From a virus (Duplodnaviria; Caudoviricetes), in the IMG/VR virus record IMGVR_UViG_3300032305_002766, positions 15,366 to 79,365 of that record: a stretch of 64,000 nt of DNA; one strand, 5' to 3'. The notes under the pieces were generated by a model that had not been told where the DNA came from, made no database searches, and worked only from the letters and a program-made list of their open reading frames with translations. The position numbers and the translations under genes are program-made. This document shows positions 54,956 through 63,845 of the stretch, in pieces (position 1 is the stretch's first letter; every line of letters begins with the position of its first letter).

Positions 54956-55567
54956 TTATTTTACGAATTGATAATATTTAAATGTTTTTTCTTCGCGATC
55001 CGCAAGGCCATGTGTTCCGCCATTGATTCGTTTTGTAAGCGCAAGTATCGCGTTTTTATCAACGCCTTTATCGCATATGTCCCATAATTTATTGCGGTCA
55101 AAGAAAAACATTGCTGATTCAAAAGCATAAGTAGTTGCTACTAAATCGGGAGTAGTTATTATTTCGGGCTTATTCAAATATTTTGAAAAAGCTTCATAAT
55201 TCGATTTTCCGGTAAGTTGTAATGCACCTCGCCCCCTATATTTCCAACCATCTCCGGATGCTTCATCGCCATTACCCATTCGGCTAGCATATACTCGGTT
55301 GGCAATTTTTTCTGGTTGGCGCGCATATGACTCTTCTAAATTACCCGGAAAGTATTTACCAAAAATCCCTTGTAATCCTTGGGATGAATAATTTAAATTT
55401 TCTGAAAATGCTTTAAAACCTCCTGTTTCGTGAGACGTTTGAGCAAAGAAATGTGCTGCACGTATTGGGGTTAATTTGTAATAAGCCATAGCGGCTTTTA
55501 TTGTACCTGGACCAAAAGCACCATCGGCTGTTACTCCTATTTTTTCTTGTAAACTTTTTAAGCTCAT
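54956..55567 (-). CDS. Glycoside hydrolase family 19 endolysin
   Basis: AAHFFAQTSHETGGF, ENLNYS, YRGRGALQLTGKSNY, TKRINGG motifs. Confidence 0.92.
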   Translation of the reverse strand: MSLKSLQEKIGVTADGAFGPGTIKAAMAYYKLTPIRAAHFFAQTSHETGGFKAFSENLNYSSQGLQGIFGKYFPGNLEESYARQPEKIANRVYASRMGNGDEASGDGWKYRGRGALQLTGKSNYEAFSKYLNKPEIITTPDLVATTYAFESAMFFFDRNKLWDICDKGVDKNAILALTKRINGGTHGLADREEKTFKYYQFVK

Positions 55568-56780: not shown

Positions 56781-57779
56781 TTAATAAGTTACTTGCCCCT
56801 TATATCCGGGAGCGATTAGATAATAGTTTCCTGTAGTGGTACCACTTACAGGGGAATTAATTGTGATTGAGCTTACACCTGGTATGGTGGAGCGCAAATC
56901 GGTTGTACCTATTGTTAAAGATGTATATTGTGTTGGGGTAAATATTCTAGATGTATAAGGGAATGTTGCTAGTCCGTTTTGTTTTCTATTGATGTAAATA
57001 GCATCTGAGACGCTTATTTTTCCATCATTGTTTGTATCGTATTGTAACCAATGTATACTTTTTCTTACTGTATTGCCTAATATATTATCTGTTACACCTC
57101 TAATATCTGTTATAGTGTGGGATGTTATAGGGGTTGGGGCATCTATTTGTATGTACCATTCAACTGATGGATTTGTTGCTTGGGAAAATGAATAGTATCC
57201 TGAGGAATTAGTGTACACTGTTTGTTGAACAACCCATGCTGTATAAGTTACTATATACTCAAACTCTAATACATAAGGTAGCGAGCTTGAATTATTCAAG
57301 TCATTCCATTTACCCCCACCAACGAACTGAATGTAATCTTCATTCCCTGAATTATTTGGTTCACCCCCATTCCAGGAAGAGTAAGAATATGTTTCCCCAG
57401 TTACCCATCTCCACACACCTTCAGTCACTTCATCTGTTAATCCAATCCAACCAGAAGGCCATAAATTAAATATGAAAGAGTTTTCAGCTGCTGTAGTTAC
57501 TGTTACTAAATGCCCACCCATAGCTTCACAATTAGATCTAGCAGTTGTCCATACTGCCGATCCAGTTGATCGATAATATGAATGACCATTGTAATTGTTT
57601 TGTGAAGTAAATCCGGTTAGTGTTGGAGTAGTTCTTTTATACAATTTAACAGGTACATTTATAGCACCTGTACCATCTGCATTTCTAATATAGCCGGAAT
57701 ATGTAAATGTTTGGGAAAACAAGTTACATGAAAATAATATGAGTAATATTATTGTCCTACCAATATCCTTGTACCGCAT
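56781..57779 (-). CDS. Secreted C-type lectin plus dockerin-like protein
   Basis: Signal peptide; YNGHSYY...W..ARSNCEAMGGHLVT...WIGLTD...W.W..GE...W..GEPNN...ED C-type lectin; DTNNDGKISVSD EF-hand/dockerin loop. Confidence 0.8.
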   Translation of the reverse strand: MRYKDIGRTIILLILFSCNLFSQTFTYSGYIRNADGTGAINVPVKLYKRTTPTLTGFTSQNNYNGHSYYRSTGSAVWTTARSNCEAMGGHLVTVTTAAENSFIFNLWPSGWIGLTDEVTEGVWRWVTGETYSYSSWNGGEPNNSGNEDYIQFVGGGKWNDLNNSSSLPYVLEFEYIVTYTAWVVQQTVYTNSSGYYSFSQATNPSVEWYIQIDAPTPITSHTITDIRGVTDNILGNTVRKSIHWLQYDTNNDGKISVSDAIYINRKQNGLATFPYTSRIFTPTQYTSLTIGTTDLRSTIPGVSSITINSPVSGTTTGNYYLIAPGYKGQVTY

Positions 57780-59248
57780 GTTACTGTATAGTTTAGGGCT
57801 GCTGTTTTTAAATCCCAAGCACCTCCTGCGTTTATGTTAAATTTGAATTTTTTAGTTATACCTATATTTGTTCCAATACTAGGAAGCATTACATATGGGG
57901 ATTTTAATAAAACATCATTATAGTATGAAACATAGGGAGCATAAACCATCAAATTCATTAATTTAATATCTGTGCGTTTACCTACTTTAACATCATACAT
58001 TAAACCTCCAATTATCGCAGTTCCGGTAAATGCTACTTTATAAACTTGACCATATGATACCGTAGCCATATAGACTGCTTTTAAGGTAGGTACTTTTTTA
58101 AACTTAAACATTTGCCCAAATGCTAGAGTACCATATAAAGATTTATTTCCTTCAAATCCAATGGTTGCAGTCCCTGAAAGGAGAATTACTGATTTGGGTC
58201 TCATCCAAGCATAAAAGCATGTAATGTTTGGTCCTTTTAAAGCTGAGGTATAATCGACTAATGCACCCCAACTGCGTTTTCCATCCCATCTCATGGAAGT
58301 ATAACCACCAGTTGCTTTTAACCCAGTCTTGACATCTGAGTTTCTAAAGTTGAAACCAACGAAGTCGCTTGACGCGACTACACTGGGTTTACCTCCTTCT
58401 TTAGAGGTTGGGGTTGATTTAGCTGTTGTTGAAGCTCCGGCTGTTATATTTGTTTTGCCTTCGCTTTTTTCTGACGAGGTTTGCGAACCTTCTTGGTTTG
58501 GATTGGTTTGTTCACCACTTCCGTTCCCTGAGGTGCTACTGGTGTTTTCGCTACCTTGTTCACTACTGGTTTCTCCACTTTCACTTCCACTGCTTGTGGT
58601 TGTTCCTTCACTTCCTCCTCCTTCAGTGGATGAGGTAGAACTGGTACCCCCGCTTCCTTCAGGGTTTCCGCTAGTTTCGCTGCTGCTTGTTCCTGTTCCT
58701 TCTTGCGTTCCACTACTTTGGGTTTGCGTGCTTTGATTAGACTGAGTAGAGACACTACTCCCATTCCCACTAGGATTACTAGAATTACTACTGATATTGT
58801 TGTTTCCATTTTTATTATTTTTGTTATTATTACTTCCTCCATCTCCGGGAGAATTAGATACTGACCCAACTGCTCCTCCTAGGACATTTGTCGCTCCACT
58901 TGTTAAACTTGCAATAGTTGATAAGGAATTTAAAATCCCTATAACATTTAAAGTTGTACTTTGTGTTACATTAATAGCAGTTCCTAATCCTACTATTTGA
59001 GAACATGGAGAATCTTGTCCATATTGGTTAAAAATCCCACTTGCCCACGACTCAAAATTTCCATTTGTAAAATCACTTGCGCTAAATGATCCTAATTCAC
59101 CGTAGTAAGAAACAGTAACATTACCATTTATTGGAACTACTATTGTTTTTAAATTCCCAGTACAAGGATCAGTATAACTATAATTATACGTCTGTGCGTC
59201 TATATTAAATATACACAGTAGGAATAATATAAACAAGTATGTTTTCAA
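57749..59248 (-). CDS. Secreted protein with a long S/T/G/N-rich linker and a C-terminal outer-membrane beta-barrel-like domain
   Basis: Signal peptide, low-complexity linker, then about 200 aa of alternating amphipathic strands. Confidence 0.6.
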   Translation of the reverse strand: MKTYLFILFLLCIFNIDAQTYNYSYTDPCTGNLKTIVVPINGNVTVSYYGELGSFSASDFTNGNFESWASGIFNQYGQDSPCSQIVGLGTAINVTQSTTLNVIGILNSLSTIASLTSGATNVLGGAVGSVSNSPGDGGSNNNKNNKNGNNNISSNSSNPSGNGSSVSTQSNQSTQTQSSGTQEGTGTSSSETSGNPEGSGGTSSTSSTEGGGSEGTTTSSGSESGETSSEQGSENTSSTSGNGSGEQTNPNQEGSQTSSEKSEGKTNITAGASTTAKSTPTSKEGGKPSVVASSDFVGFNFRNSDVKTGLKATGGYTSMRWDGKRSWGALVDYTSALKGPNITCFYAWMRPKSVILLSGTATIGFEGNKSLYGTLAFGQMFKFKKVPTLKAVYMATVSYGQVYKVAFTGTAIIGGLMYDVKVGKRTDIKLMNLMVYAPYVSYYNDVLLKSPYVMLPSIGTNIGITKKFKFNINAGGAWDLKTAALNYTVTCGTRILVGQ

Positions 59249-60287: not shown

Positions 60288-62192
60288 TTATTGTTTGAGT
60301 AACTTTGTATTGATTGGGTTTTCGTTATCTAGGGATAAATTAACTACATACATTCCTTGAGCTAATTTACCTAAATCTTTTACATATGTAAATTGTCCTG
60401 CTGGTAATTTTCCGTTTAATATTGTAATTATTTTTCTTCCTTGTAAATCATAAATTGCTAAATTAGCATCAGTAGTTGAAGTTACATTAAATGTAATGGC
60501 AACATTTTCAATTGCTGGATTAGGAGAAATTTCAATTGTATTAGGTGCAATTAATTTACCATTAATAGATTTAAGTACTTGTAAAATCCCATTTGTAGGT
60601 GTAATTTCAAGATCTTTTGAATTAATAGCTCCTGCAAATTTGTCAGTTGTATAAAGTGGACTTTCTAACCACTCGTTTTGTGGTTGTTTAGCTAAAAATT
60701 GCAATGTCATTACTTCATCACCATCTTGCAATGGGTTTAAGTTATTTGTTGCATCATATCCACCCCATTCAACTTCATCGTTATTTGGATTGATATATGT
60801 TAACCATTTCATTACATTTGAAGTAGAATAAGCATTTTTGAATTCAAGTACTGTTGGATCGTATTTTAATCCAAATTGCAATGAATTCAATTCTTGTCCG
60901 TTTGTAAATACTTTTACAGGAATATTAACTAAATTTCCTGCTTGTACAGATAAATGAGGTACGTTTACTTCAATTGTTGCAGTTGGAAAATCATATTCTA
61001 CTGTATTATCAATTACATTATATATTTGATTTTCAATCCCAGGAATTGGATCAATTAAGATTTCAATTGGTGTTTGACGAGCCATATGATATCCCGTTCC
61101 ATTCGCATCACCAGGTACACAAACATAATACGTTACTGTTGAAGGTTGACCTGCTATGATTTCATATGTGAAATTAGTTATACCTGCAATTGTTGAAGTG
61201 TAGTTAGTAGAGGAGTTATTAATTGTAGCATATTCATTTGCCGTAAAGAATTTAACGTTTTTAACGTTATTTGGCCATACTGTAAAATTACCTGATACTT
61301 TAGCAAATACACCATAAGCATCTGAAATTGTTACGTTATCTGATTCATTTACATCTGCTGTATAATAATCAAATCCTGACATTGTGCCATTACCTAATAC
61401 CCATTGGTTAATTAATTGTGCATCAGTTGCAGAAATTGCATTTCCAATACCCATTGTATCACCTTGAATTGCTAAACGTACATCCCAATAAGTTGTATCT
61501 AAGTTAACAGTAAAGGTAAAATCACCAGCAATATCAGTTGTGTAAGCTGAATGTTGGGTCCAAGTAGAACCACCTGCAGGGCGAGTTTGTAAAGCTAATG
61601 GTAAGTTTTTAGCAGGTGTACCTGTTGTGTTTGTAAAGTTCCCAGCAAATGTAAATGTTGGTAGGATAAATTCACCACCATAATTATGTAATGTTAAAGT
61701 AGTATCAATACCATTTTGCTTAGAAGCGTACTGTGAGAAAGTTTGGGTACCTGTCCAAGTTAAGTTAGTAATTGAAGCTAAGTTATTAAAAATTGAGGGT
61801 GGAGCATGTGTAAATGTAACAGCAAATCTTTCTCCTCCAGCTAAAGTATAAGTTGAAGAAGCTCCTGTATAAACAAGAGTAATTGTAATATACCCAGCAG
61901 CTGCATTGGTTACATATTGCATATCTAAGTTGGTTGTAGAACCAATTAAAGCAACAGTAGCATTTGTAAATGCAATGTTGTCATAAAACACACGAAACTG
62001 AGTTGCTGTAAATTTAGTTAAGGTTGTGTTTTGTAACGTTAAATTAGCTGTTGTAAACCCTGTAGCTGTAGGAGCTACTTGATAAGTTGGGTGGATTAAG
62101 GCATAAATACCATTTCCGGGTGCATTCGGTGCTTGGGAGAATACATTAAATGCTGTAAAAGCAAGTAATAAAGATAATAATAAATTTTTCAT
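60288..62192 (-). CDS. T9SS-sorted protein with two cohesin-like domains and a dockerin-like module
   Basis: Signal peptide; VQAGNLVNIPVKV...SLQFGLKYDPTVLEF cohesin; ADVNESDNVTISD dockerin loop; C-terminal ISPNPA...IYDLQGRKI...L..GMYVV...KLLKQ T9SS type A CTD. Confidence 0.85.
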   Translation of the reverse strand: MKNLLLSLLLAFTAFNVFSQAPNAPGNGIYALIHPTYQVAPTATGFTTANLTLQNTTLTKFTATQFRVFYDNIAFTNATVALIGSTTNLDMQYVTNAAAGYITITLVYTGASSTYTLAGGERFAVTFTHAPPSIFNNLASITNLTWTGTQTFSQYASKQNGIDTTLTLHNYGGEFILPTFTFAGNFTNTTGTPAKNLPLALQTRPAGGSTWTQHSAYTTDIAGDFTFTVNLDTTYWDVRLAIQGDTMGIGNAISATDAQLINQWVLGNGTMSGFDYYTADVNESDNVTISDAYGVFAKVSGNFTVWPNNVKNVKFFTANEYATINNSSTNYTSTIAGITNFTYEIIAGQPSTVTYYVCVPGDANGTGYHMARQTPIEILIDPIPGIENQIYNVIDNTVEYDFPTATIEVNVPHLSVQAGNLVNIPVKVFTNGQELNSLQFGLKYDPTVLEFKNAYSTSNVMKWLTYINPNNDEVEWGGYDATNNLNPLQDGDEVMTLQFLAKQPQNEWLESPLYTTDKFAGAINSKDLEITPTNGILQVLKSINGKLIAPNTIEISPNPAIENVAITFNVTSTTDANLAIYDLQGRKIITILNGKLPAGQFTYVKDLGKLAQGMYVVNLSLDNENPINTKLLKQ

Positions 62193-63365: not shown

Positions 63366-63435
63366 TAGTCAGGACAGGATTCGAACCTGTAACTTTCGTA
63401 CAAATAACTAGCGTCTACCATTCCGCCACCTAACT
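63366..63435 (-). ncRNA. tRNA-like RNA with an aberrant anticodon arm (pseudo-tRNA)
   Basis: Acceptor AGTTAGG/CCTGACT, Leu-type D arm GGCGGAATGGTAGACGC and T arm ACAGG-TTCGAAT-CCTGT are intact; only ~20 nt without a canonical stem lie between them. Confidence 0.65.
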
Positions 63436-63534
63436 ATATGCCCACCCCGTAGATGGGCTGCTCAACTTAAGGTATTGAGATCGCAAGAACAAGTCTCTGA
63501 CCAAGTCATCTACAATTTTTGCAGAGACATTTAG

Positions 63535-63607
63535 TAGCGGGGGCAGGACTCGAACCTGCGTCCTCGGGTTATGAGCCCGCCAAGAATACCATCTTCTCCA
63601 CCCCGCA
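63535..63607 (-). tRNA. Initiator tRNA-fMet (CAT)
   Basis: GGG/CCC anticodon-stem triplet, CTCATAA loop, unpaired 1:72 (T:T). Confidence 0.85.
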
Positions 63608-63613
63608 ATATAG

Positions 63614-63766
63614 TAGCTCTAGTAGGAATCGAACCCACCTTGTAAACTACTTGTAATATGCCTTGACTTAAGTAACTCCGATCCTAGTATTAAGGAGTGT
63701 CAAACCAAATTACCCTCATTTACCCACTCGCAGCTGCCAGGAGCGACCTGCGCTTGCTATAGAGCC
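63614..63766 (-). ncRNA. 153-nt structured RNA with a tRNA-like acceptor stem and T arm
   Basis: GGCTCTA/TAGAGCT acceptor stem; GTGGG-TTCGATT-CCTAC T arm; internal hairpins CGCAG/CTGCG, TTGAC/GTCAA, ACTCC/GGAGT. Confidence 0.6.
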
Positions 63767-63773
63767 ATATTTG

Positions 63774-63845
63774 ATTCTCATGAAGGATTCGAACCTTCGT
63801 CTGGGCACTCAACGTACCCCGACTTTACCACTTGTCCAATGAGAA
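63774..63845 (-). tRNA. tRNA-Gln (TTG)-like with an atypical anticodon loop
   Basis: TTCTCAT/ATGAGAA acceptor (T1-A72); loop CGTTGAG, with G at position 33. Confidence 0.65.

Follow-up and report, generated by a model that had tools for sequence, protein, structure and literature searches.

A family of tRNA-shaped small RNAs with a conserved long arm in the tRNA arrays of large aquatic phages

The DNA examined here, referred to as the window, is the final 64 kb of a 79,365-nucleotide (nt) virus contig from IMG/VR (record IMGVR_UViG_3300032305_002766; estimated to be about 49% complete, about 31% G+C), which ends in an array of minus-strand tRNA genes identified by ARAGORN and Rfam. Inside this array lies a 153-nt element (positions 63614 to 63766, minus strand) that belongs to a real, well-supported family of phage RNAs, for which we collected 136 homologues, 94 of them distinct, with lengths of 135 to 179 nt. 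The members fold into a four-way junction like the tRNA cloverleaf, in which a hairpin takes the D position and an 82-nt arm the anticodon position, between an acceptor stem and a T arm. The family is apparently uncatalogued; it is absent from Rfam 15, and current annotation pipelines therefore miss it. Our preferred reading, to which comparison of the sequences leads us to assign a probability of about 0.6, is that the element is a stable, non-decoding, tRNA-shaped small RNA of the phage that is processed like a tRNA, with the long arm as its putative active part. A preliminary description of the window, made from its letters alone, had placed a 153-nt tRNA-like RNA at exactly these coordinates and called it a tRNA mimic. 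The 94 distinct homologues bear this out: the element is conserved, structured, and non-decoding, and is neither a chance fold nor a decayed tRNA.

Family, fold, and genomic setting

Homologues were gathered by pattern scans that used the 3' end, then the apical loop, and then the junction together with the T loop; the collected loci are labeled with L-numbers (L006, L047, and so on). The sources are IMG/VR contigs and marine, estuarine, and lake assemblies of TARA, ENA, and JGI, and the family is widespread in marine and freshwater viromes, where it is single-copy in genomes of about 160 to 289 kb. Model R1, a covariance model trained on 42 homologues, scored family members at 89 to 158 bits, compared with at most 36 bits for ordinary tRNAs in the same 1.7 Mb. 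R1 identified exactly one copy in the window contig and one in each of five large phage records (206 to 289 kb; three rated 100% complete, one with terminal repeats). A pattern scan of bacterial and archaeal genomes gave 80 matches, one of them a true member and almost all the rest due to chance; the true member lies on a 530-nt contig binned into a Rhodothermales metagenome-assembled genome and is probably phage DNA. Our literature search found no description of the family, which could be one of the 8,495 IMG/VR candidates left unnamed in PMC10690425.

The fold of the window element by itself (−47.6 kcal/mol; z = −2.1) is a modest gain over shuffled sequences, so the evidence beyond chance rests on the homologues. 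RNAalifold, applied to a plain MAFFT alignment, recovered the acceptor stem and the T arm together with the two helices at the base of the long arm, with compensatory changes in 18 of 23 consensus pairs. The full structure was written by hand and counted on an alignment fitted only to the basal helices. Across the 94 distinct sequences, 89.4% of cells were paired, against 73% in column shuffles and 34 to 42% in slid controls, in which the partners were shifted by one to three columns. Changes on both sides were found in 37 of 43 pairs, and the covariation score was 0.487, against 0.07 to 0.09 in the slid controls; the same picture was obtained on 43 sequences. Homologue covariation, which the preliminary description had proposed as a check, thus supports the RNA, and several of the helices named there are real. 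The 7-bp acceptor stem (GGCUCUA/UAGAGCU, with a wobble at G1-U72) and the canonical T arm (GUGGG-UUCGAUU-CCUAC) are both present, and UUGAC/GUCAA enclosing ACUCC/GGAGU covaries, as helices 6 to 8 in the 94 sequences and helices 6 and 7 in the 43.

The D and anticodon arms had been described as replaced by one large insert. This part of the description does not stand, since the cloverleaf topology is kept, with a hairpin in the D position and the long arm in the anticodon position. The D-position hairpin was found in 42 of 42 distinct members of the first set; it is 13 to 46 nt long and of several types, with tips such as GG-UCGCU-CC, GAUA, or short loops, and its helices 2 and 3 are paired in 86% and 66% of cells, with double changes. 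A CGCAG/CUGCG hairpin, also proposed earlier, does occur in the window sequence and in its minimum free energy fold, but across the family it is paired in only 61.5% of cells, cannot be told from the slid controls, and is contradicted by L002 and L028. Close relatives favor instead GCA/UGC around CAGG-UCGCU-CCUG; in L006, L027, and L028, C-G pairs have become U-A by double changes, and CAGG/CCUG is turned into UGGG/CCUA or UAGG/CCUA by paired substitutions. A tight H-type pseudoknot in the D region (AGCG/CGCU with CAGG/CCUG) was considered and rejected; it is sterically impossible, and wider sampling backs CAGG/CCUG only.

The junction that follows is single-stranded, with the consensus G/A-A-G/U-U-G-G, and its UGG is invariant also in 18 sequences found by loop or T-arm patterns alone. 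Four invariant unpaired bases, U8, A9, A39, and A115, were never part of a search pattern. A39 and U41 G42 G43 are candidate stand-ins for A14/A21 and G18 G19 of the tRNA elbow, which the junction GG might re-form with the help of U8, A9, A39, and the canonical T loop. Three linker bases separate the long arm from the T arm. The parts of the element are listed in Table 1 with the tRNA genes on either side.

TABLE 1 Positions in the window of the parts of the element and of the flanking tRNA genes
Feature	Position	Strand	Remarks
Upstream tRNA-Gln(UUG)	63773..63845	−	ARAGORN; 6 nt before the element
Acceptor stem, 5' strand, GGCUCUA (RNA nt 1-7)	63760..63766	−	Helix 1; 7/7 pairs covary; 99.7% of cells paired, 94 sequences
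U8 A9 linker	63758..63759	−	Invariant, 94/94; never in any search pattern
D-position hairpin (nt 10-37), GCA/UGC around CAGG-UCGCU-CCUG	63730..63757	−	Variable module of the family
Junction GAGUGG (nt 38-43)	63724..63729	−	A39 94/94, never in a pattern
Long arm, anticodon position (nt 44-125): P1-P5, internal loops, A/U-rich 3' bulge	63642..63723	−	Covariation
Internal loop, 5' strand, G50 A51 N52 G53	63714..63717	−	G, A, G invariant
Internal loop, 3' strand, A115 N116 G117 U118 A119	63648..63652	−	A115/U118/A119 94/94, G117 93/94
Apical 14-nt loop UUAAUACUAGGAUC, self-complementary CUAG center	63680..63693	−	Palindromic center in all aligned types
T arm (nt 129-145), T loop UUCGAUU	63622..63638	−	Helix 9; 100% of cells paired; 3/5 pairs covary
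Acceptor stem, 3' strand, and discriminator A	63614..63621	−	CCA not encoded
Downstream tRNA-Met(CAU)	63534..63607	−	ARAGORN and Rfam; 6 nt after the element

The association with tRNA arrays holds across the family. All 793 tRNAs called by ARAGORN in the 94 loci lie on the strand of the element. A same-strand tRNA is found within 300 nt in 74 loci, and an upstream tRNA within 30 nt in 39, typically at a gap of 3 to 8 nt. Many carrier phages have 18 to 26 tRNAs, and two (L013 and L028) have tRNAs for all 20 amino acids and still carry the element; because the element persists in phages with every specificity, it is an extra gene and no stand-in for a missing tRNA.

No protein-coding gene accompanies the element with such regularity. 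When open reading frames (ORFs) within 6 kb of 56 loci were clustered, no protein family occurred in more than 10 loci; recurring neighbors include homing endonucleases (DUF559, GIY-YIG), a lysin, ThyA, an RNase H-like protein, and an SPFH protein. No Ro/TROVE gene was found in six carrier records (the window contig and the five large genomes), and RtcB was absent from the window contig, the only record searched for it. SmpB was found in one of the five large carrier genomes, and a CCA-adding enzyme in the same single record. Given that no neighbor recurs, that no phage Ro was found, and that SmpB and the CCA-adding enzyme are confined to one record, the protein partners of the element are probably encoded by the host.

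The long arm

The arm consists of a 6-bp basal helix (P1), an internal loop, helices P2 to P5 with an A/U-rich bulge on the 3' side, and an apical loop. In the 94 sequences the proportion of paired cells is 99.8% for P1, 86% for P2, 80 to 89% for P3 and P4, and 78% for P5, all with compensatory changes, and folds of individual sequences agree with this layout. All 24 loci found with the arm-loop motif (17 distinct sequences) have the same tRNA-like shell, and the arm was never seen in another; the arm is therefore not a swapped cassette. A short-arm subtype of 137 to 138 nt was found on TARA ocean contigs (L247:226-363, L188:288-424, and L239:965-1101), in which a single hairpin, CAAC-GCUGCGCGUAGG-GUUG, replaces the distal arm and the junction, internal loop, and shell are retained.

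In the internal loop, A115-N-G117-U118-A119 faces G50-A51-N-G53, and both strands are near-invariant in the 94 sequences; G50, A51, and G53 are also invariant in the independently ascertained set A1. A GUA is thus placed opposite a GA between two helices, an arrangement that we take to be the signature of the bulged-G (sarcin-ricin or loop-E) motif. The loop is accordingly a candidate bulged-G motif, whose non-canonical pairs are predicted from the consensus. In other RNAs this motif is a docking platform for protein or RNA.

The apical loop is 12 to 15 nt long, reaching about 19 nt in a few short-arm variants. Its center is self-complementary in every aligned type: CUAG in most, GCGC in L037 and L054, CGCG in L031, UGCA in L061, and CCGG in L238; three short-arm variants outside the alignment have a GCGC or CGCG center as judged by eye. 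Six loop hexamers are perfect palindromes (ACUAGU, UCUAGA, UGCGCA, ACGCGU, AUGCAU, and ACCGGU), and the loop types include ACUAGG, AAUACUAGUAUU, and UAAUGCGCAUUA. The loops of L006, L027, L045, L037, L054, and L061 contain perfect palindromes of 8 to 12 nt, with self-duplex energies at p ≤ 0.01 against shuffles. The paired changes at the loop center fall on adjacent and next-adjacent bases. Since adjacent bases cannot pair inside one hairpin loop, these changes point to pairing in trans between two copies. The simplest reading would be a homodimer held by kissing loops or an extended duplex, which we put forward tentatively, at a little short of even odds.

Two other readings of the loop region were tried and discarded. 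An anticodon-like apical loop (CUA or UUA in a 7-nt loop closed by UCCU/AGGA) fails because L006 breaks the helix and because CUCC/GGAG covaries instead (CUCU/AGAG, UCCC/GGGA, CUAC/GUAG). The likeness of P5 and its loop to the 3' end of 16S rRNA (anti-Shine-Dalgarno) or to the sarcin-ricin hairpin of 23S rRNA is not conserved, and we regard it as a coincidence.

Rival identities and proposed role

The searches with Rfam and ARAGORN that had been suggested for the element returned no known family. ARAGORN made no tRNA or tmRNA call there, and Rfam 15, at the gathering threshold and at E values up to 10, gave only a 9.2-bit match to the T loop of tmRNA. The tRNA model RF00005 (gathering threshold, 29 bits) did not match the element at E values up to 10 or any of 14 other members at E values up to 0.1. 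What the element shares with tRNA is the 7-bp acceptor stem and a T arm with a T loop of the form UUCRANY. An anticodon arm (5-bp stem, 7-nt loop, U33, R37) is absent, and the 82-nt arm is found instead; a canonical D arm with G18 G19 in its loop is likewise absent, its place taken by a variable closed hairpin, with a conserved GG located 3' of it in the junction. With the anticodon arm and a canonical D arm missing and the tRNA model failing to match, a decoding tRNA is excluded. We conclude that the element is not a decoding tRNA, a tmRNA, an intron-bearing tRNA, or a Y RNA. The lack of an anticodon-like loop argues, in particular, against a decoy for anticodon nucleases.

Several rival explanations keep some connection to these known classes. 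In one, the element is a precursor tRNA with a novel small intron (about 67 nt, at site 37/38), so that P1 would be the anticodon stem and U49-G50-A51-N52-G53 would be read as U33, a GAN anticodon (Ile GAU or Leu GAG), and R37. The 5' strand of the internal loop does read U-GAU-G or U-GAG-G, tRNA-Ile(GAU) accounts for 9 of 19 close downstream neighbors and is often the immediate one, and tRNA-Ile(GAU) genes are among the ordinary tRNAs that score highest with R1; the string and the neighbor are a hint of descent from tRNA-Ile. As an explanation of the present element, we nevertheless find the intron highly improbable. The would-be position 36 varies among close relatives (U66/G22/A4/C2), a stem of just 4 bp would be followed by a Watson-Crick 32-38 pair, and the D arm departs from the canonical form, its short versions having 4- to 5-nt loops that lack GG. 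The supposed anticodon bases belong to a two-stranded invariant motif, with A-GUA facing them, and the supposed intron is the most conserved part of the molecule and covaries as a stable arm. Carriers already own tRNA-Ile(GAU) and complete tRNA sets, and the known introns of bacterial and phage tRNAs are group I introns, far longer, for which Rfam gave no match. A group I intron tRNA as such was rejected, in line with the preliminary description: the non-tRNA part is about 80 nt, compared with a core of more than about 200 nt, Intron_gpI does not match, and the flanks rebuild no canonical tRNA. A miniature tmRNA, which the preliminary description had entertained, would carry a short tag frame whose stops fall in the apical loop (UAA..UAG), and would accept alanine and act in the rescue of stalled ribosomes. 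Like the element, the tRNA-like domain of tmRNA (RF00023) combines an acceptor stem with a T arm, lacks a canonical D stem-loop, and sends a long helix out of its core. The apical UAA and UAG share one frame, recalling the stop codons held by the helix-5 loop of tmRNA, and in the window the frame AUG...CCU UAA is open. This idea is scarcely credible all the same: the 3:70 pair is C-G, U-A, or U-G and never G3:U70, neither frame nor stops are conserved (the stops of L002 and L013 lie elsewhere, and the loops of L037, L031, and L061 differ), and the would-be frame is fully base-paired, such that a UAA/UGA change at nt 45 to 47 is compensated in P1. The preliminary description had seen no obvious tag frame, and across the family the region covaries as a helix. 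There are no pseudoknots, the junction is four-way rather than three-way, and the length is 153 nt rather than more than 250 nt; the match to RF00023 covers the T loop only, at 9 bits. ARAGORN made no call at the element, although it finds the full 387-nt tmRNA of the phage L047, which carries both RNAs. The lack of an SmpB gene in four of the five large carriers is neutral, as the host protein could serve.

The element might also be charged by a synthetase that does not read the anticodon, and act as an aminoacyl donor outside the ribosome (for cell-wall, lipid, or N-end-rule transferases) or as a synthetase sink. Minihelices can be substrates for some synthetases, and the element has an intact acceptor/T-arm minihelix, a probable elbow, and A as its commonest discriminator. 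Against this, all seven acceptor pairs vary, pair 1:72 being G-C, G-U, C-G, or A-U and pair 3:70 being CG in 55 sequences, UG in 19, and UA in 18, and the discriminator is A in 74, G in 12, and U in 7 of the 94 sequences; a comparison of acceptor and T arm with the tRNAs of the same phage gave no consistent donor isoacceptor. With acceptor pairs and discriminator varying, no G3:U70, and no likeness to an isoacceptor, a conserved aminoacylation identity appears unlikely from the sequences, and the donor explanation, which would also leave the conserved arm without a reason, is improbable. We give very little credence to a Y-RNA-like adaptor, another early suggestion, whose arm would bind a Ro60/Rsr ring and whose tRNA-like head would gate or recruit an exoribonuclease. 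YrlA does join a tRNA-like module to a long protein-binding stem, and some phages encode it (PMC4201824). RF02553 gave no match at the element, however, and the topology is reversed, since the RNA ends lie in the acceptor stem here and at the base of the Ro-binding long stem in YrlA; no TROVE gene was found in the six carrier records, so that any Ro partner would have to come from the host. Equally hard to credit as the small tmRNA is a decayed tRNA with an insertion, or a palindromic or cruciform protein site acting as DNA with no RNA function. The apical palindromes (CTAG, TCTAGA, TGCGCA, and others) are two-fold symmetric in double-stranded DNA, and the nearest cultured relatives manage without the element. 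Against this, 94 distinct sequences keep every helix by compensation, including strand-specific G-U pairs, the embedding in tRNA arrays is strictly on the same strand, phages of 160 to 289 kb retain a single copy, and invariant unpaired bases sit at tRNA-core positions.

Under our preferred reading of a processed, non-decoding RNA, the element would be transcribed within the polycistronic tRNA array and excised by the tRNA machinery of the host, with RNase P cutting at the 5' end, followed by 3' trimming and CCA addition. Such processing is suggested by the retention of the acceptor/T-arm stack and, probably, of the elbow (U8, A9, the junction A and GG, and the T loop). Maturation by RNase P and CCA addition had been proposed before; same-strand tRNAs a few nt away and the lack of an encoded CCA are as expected for it, and the maturation itself is a prediction from that setting. 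The tRNA-like top half would be a shell for processing and stability, like the engineered tRNA scaffold, and the 82-nt arm would be the working part, its GA-G/A-GUA internal loop probably serving as a bulged-G platform for a protein, most likely one of the host. The self-complementary apical loops of two molecules would pair to give a homodimer shaped like a rod, each end of which is a tRNA-like head. The element is most likely not aminoacylated, and our best guess at its role is that it binds or titrates a host tRNA- or RNA-binding factor during infection. A more specific version, which we consider unlikely, has the homodimer hold its two tRNA-like heads about 50 bp apart on a rigid rod, with a bulged-G protein site per rod, as a bivalent mimic trapping two host tRNA-binding machines; these could be ribosomes, a tRNA-directed defense nuclease, or a processing enzyme. 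If this version holds, the loop palindrome would be a lineage-specific dimerization code, the family would represent phage RNA effectors of a new class, and there would be a first functional clue to a 50-year-old puzzle, that of the tRNA-like stable RNAs of T4 and T5.

A number of observations weigh against the preferred reading. Because collection was based on patterns, UGGGU, UGA-G, GUA, and the T loop are invariant in part by construction, and more divergent members stay unseen. As a cross-check on ascertainment, sequences found by the loop or the 3' end only already show the invariant junction and internal loop, and junction-based finds show the apical loop varying. The putative bulged-G assignment is a comparison of the internal loop with the published consensus. 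Kissing-loop homodimers of the HIV-1 dimerization initiation site (DIS) type have a self-complementary apical loop, and the element, with its palindromic center tetramer in all aligned types, may be a further case; however, the commonest loop type, that of the window included, is ACUAGG, which is self-complementary over 4 nt (CUAG) only, or forms eight Watson-Crick pairs with two A-G mismatches over 10 nt. Its self-duplex energy does not surpass that of shuffles (z = −0.1), and 6-nt palindromes arise in A/U-rich loops of 12 to 14 nt with p values of 0.15 to 0.3 per loop. No cultured phage was found to carry the element, and two family members used as BLASTN queries matched none of 50,697 phage records. 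The nearest terminase relatives, two cultured phages (Flavobacterium phage immuto and Microcystis phage Mel-JY01) and the metagenomic record LR756508, lack it when whole genomes are searched with R1, scoring only at the level of tRNAs (23 to 32 bits); the element is consequently dispensable for an immuto-like phage type.

Related RNAs and other features of the arrays

tRNA-like stable RNAs in phage tRNA clusters, such as RNAC and RNAD of T4 and RNA1 and RNA2 of T5, have been known since the 1970s, and to our knowledge nobody knows what they do. The present family belongs with this known but unexplained kind of RNA. The roles of T4 RNAC and RNAD are given as unknown (PMC3014915, PMC9697503), and the T5 RNAs are labeled in GenBank (AY543070) as "tRNA-like stable RNA with unknown functions." With R1 and all filters off, the T4 and T5 RNAs score 8 to 10 bits, below ordinary tRNAs, and they are therefore analogues, not members. 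T4 RNAC (species 1 RNA, 139 nt) is, like the element, a small RNA from a same-strand phage tRNA array, stable in its case, with a 7-bp acceptor-like stem and a T arm (CCGGG-UUCGAAU-CCCGG) around a large structured insert. It cannot be aligned with the family (10 bits; E = 0.23) and has its long hairpin in the D position and a short one before the T arm, in contrast to the long arm of the element in the anticodon position; it lacks the UGGGU junction, the GA/GUA internal loop, and the palindromic apical loop, and its acceptor stem has two U-U mismatches. T5 RNA1 (144 nt) and RNA2 (125 nt) are also insert-bearing tRNA-like shells in a phage tRNA region. They score 8.3 and 8.5 bits, respectively; RNA1 has retained a Leu-type D arm, and their inserts are unrelated.

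The same design is found in the engineered tRNA scaffold of Ponchon and Dardel, in which an insert replaces the anticodon stem-loop and the shell is processed and stabilized in bacteria (PMC3753655). Acceptor, T, and D parts are retained there and a hairpin cargo occupies the anticodon position; the scaffold is man-made and takes arbitrary cargo, whereas the cargo of the element is one conserved natural arm and its D arm is non-canonical. This trick of biotechnology thus has natural counterparts. With about a hundred distinct sequences and a well-supported fold, the family is a better comparative handle than the single examples from T4 and T5, and it offers a short list of invariant unpaired bases to mutate and a testable prediction of dimerization. 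The partner of the arm, if found, could reveal a new phage action on the tRNA or translation machinery of the host.

tRNA-Leu-like shells occur in the arrays of the same carrier phages. These have constant ends (5' AGUYAGGUGGCGGAAUGGUAGACGC and 3' ACAGGUUCGAWUCCUGUCCUGACUA) around unrelated inserts, with a total length of 102 to 127 nt (L018:2617-2743, L011:464-578, L017:5375-5491, L013:6686-6789, L010:4949-5050, and L027:2636-2737). The element inverts this logic, as its arm, junction, and T arm are constant and its acceptor sequence and D hairpin vary. In the window, a minimal, anticodon-less tRNA-Leu-like shell lies 180 nt from the element (63366-63435, minus strand), with 14 nt in place of the 17-nt anticodon arm; it scores 41.5 bits with the Rfam tRNA model, and ARAGORN makes no call. 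The upstream tRNA-Gln(UUG), called by ARAGORN, has no Rfam tRNA score even at E values up to 10, and its anticodon loop, read by eye as C-G-UUG-A-G, has a G in place of the universal U33.

The window contig encodes a T4-type major head protein, a portal protein, and a large terminase, the last with 58% identity to that of Flavobacterium phage vB_FspM_immuto, a 160-kb phage. An ORF at 60288-62192 (minus strand; 634 amino acids) combines a cohesin domain with a C-terminal type IX secretion system (T9SS) sorting domain (Por_Secre_tail); near it are a C-type lectin ORF (56781-57818) and a GH19 lysin-like ORF (54956-55567). A host T9SS export signal on a phage protein is unusual and points to a Bacteroidota host. 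From the head, portal, and terminase genes, the T9SS sorting domain, and the immuto-like terminase, the virus is most likely a myovirus of Flavobacteriia or other Bacteroidota.

Other arrays of the family contain further genes and RNAs. Homing-endonuclease-type genes (DUF559/Vsr-like with a helix-turn-helix; GIY-YIG/SegE-like) are dispersed in them (L032:11243-12175, L031:4327-5085, and relatives) and recall segB of the T4 tRNA cluster. The 206-kb record behind L023 is the one that encodes its own SmpB and a CCA-adding-type nucleotidyltransferase. The phage tmRNA at L047:1363-1749 has a 26-residue tag ending in AVAA, in a phage that has 25 tRNAs besides the element. GOLLD and ROOL, large structured RNAs, often adjoin tRNAs in phages (PMC5737381). 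The orphan motif freshwater-1 (RF02979) occurs in the same arrays (L011:1382-1443, L175:803-864, and L219:98-159; 86, 71, and 70 bits) a few hundred nt from the element, which places it in the tRNA clusters of large aquatic phages. A third tRNA-like type, about 120 nt long (L057:2652-2771 and L009:8196-8316), has the acceptor strand GGGGCGG, a D-like region, a second, internal hairpin resembling a T arm (GAGG-UUCGAUU-CCUC), and then two further hairpins that precede the real T arm.

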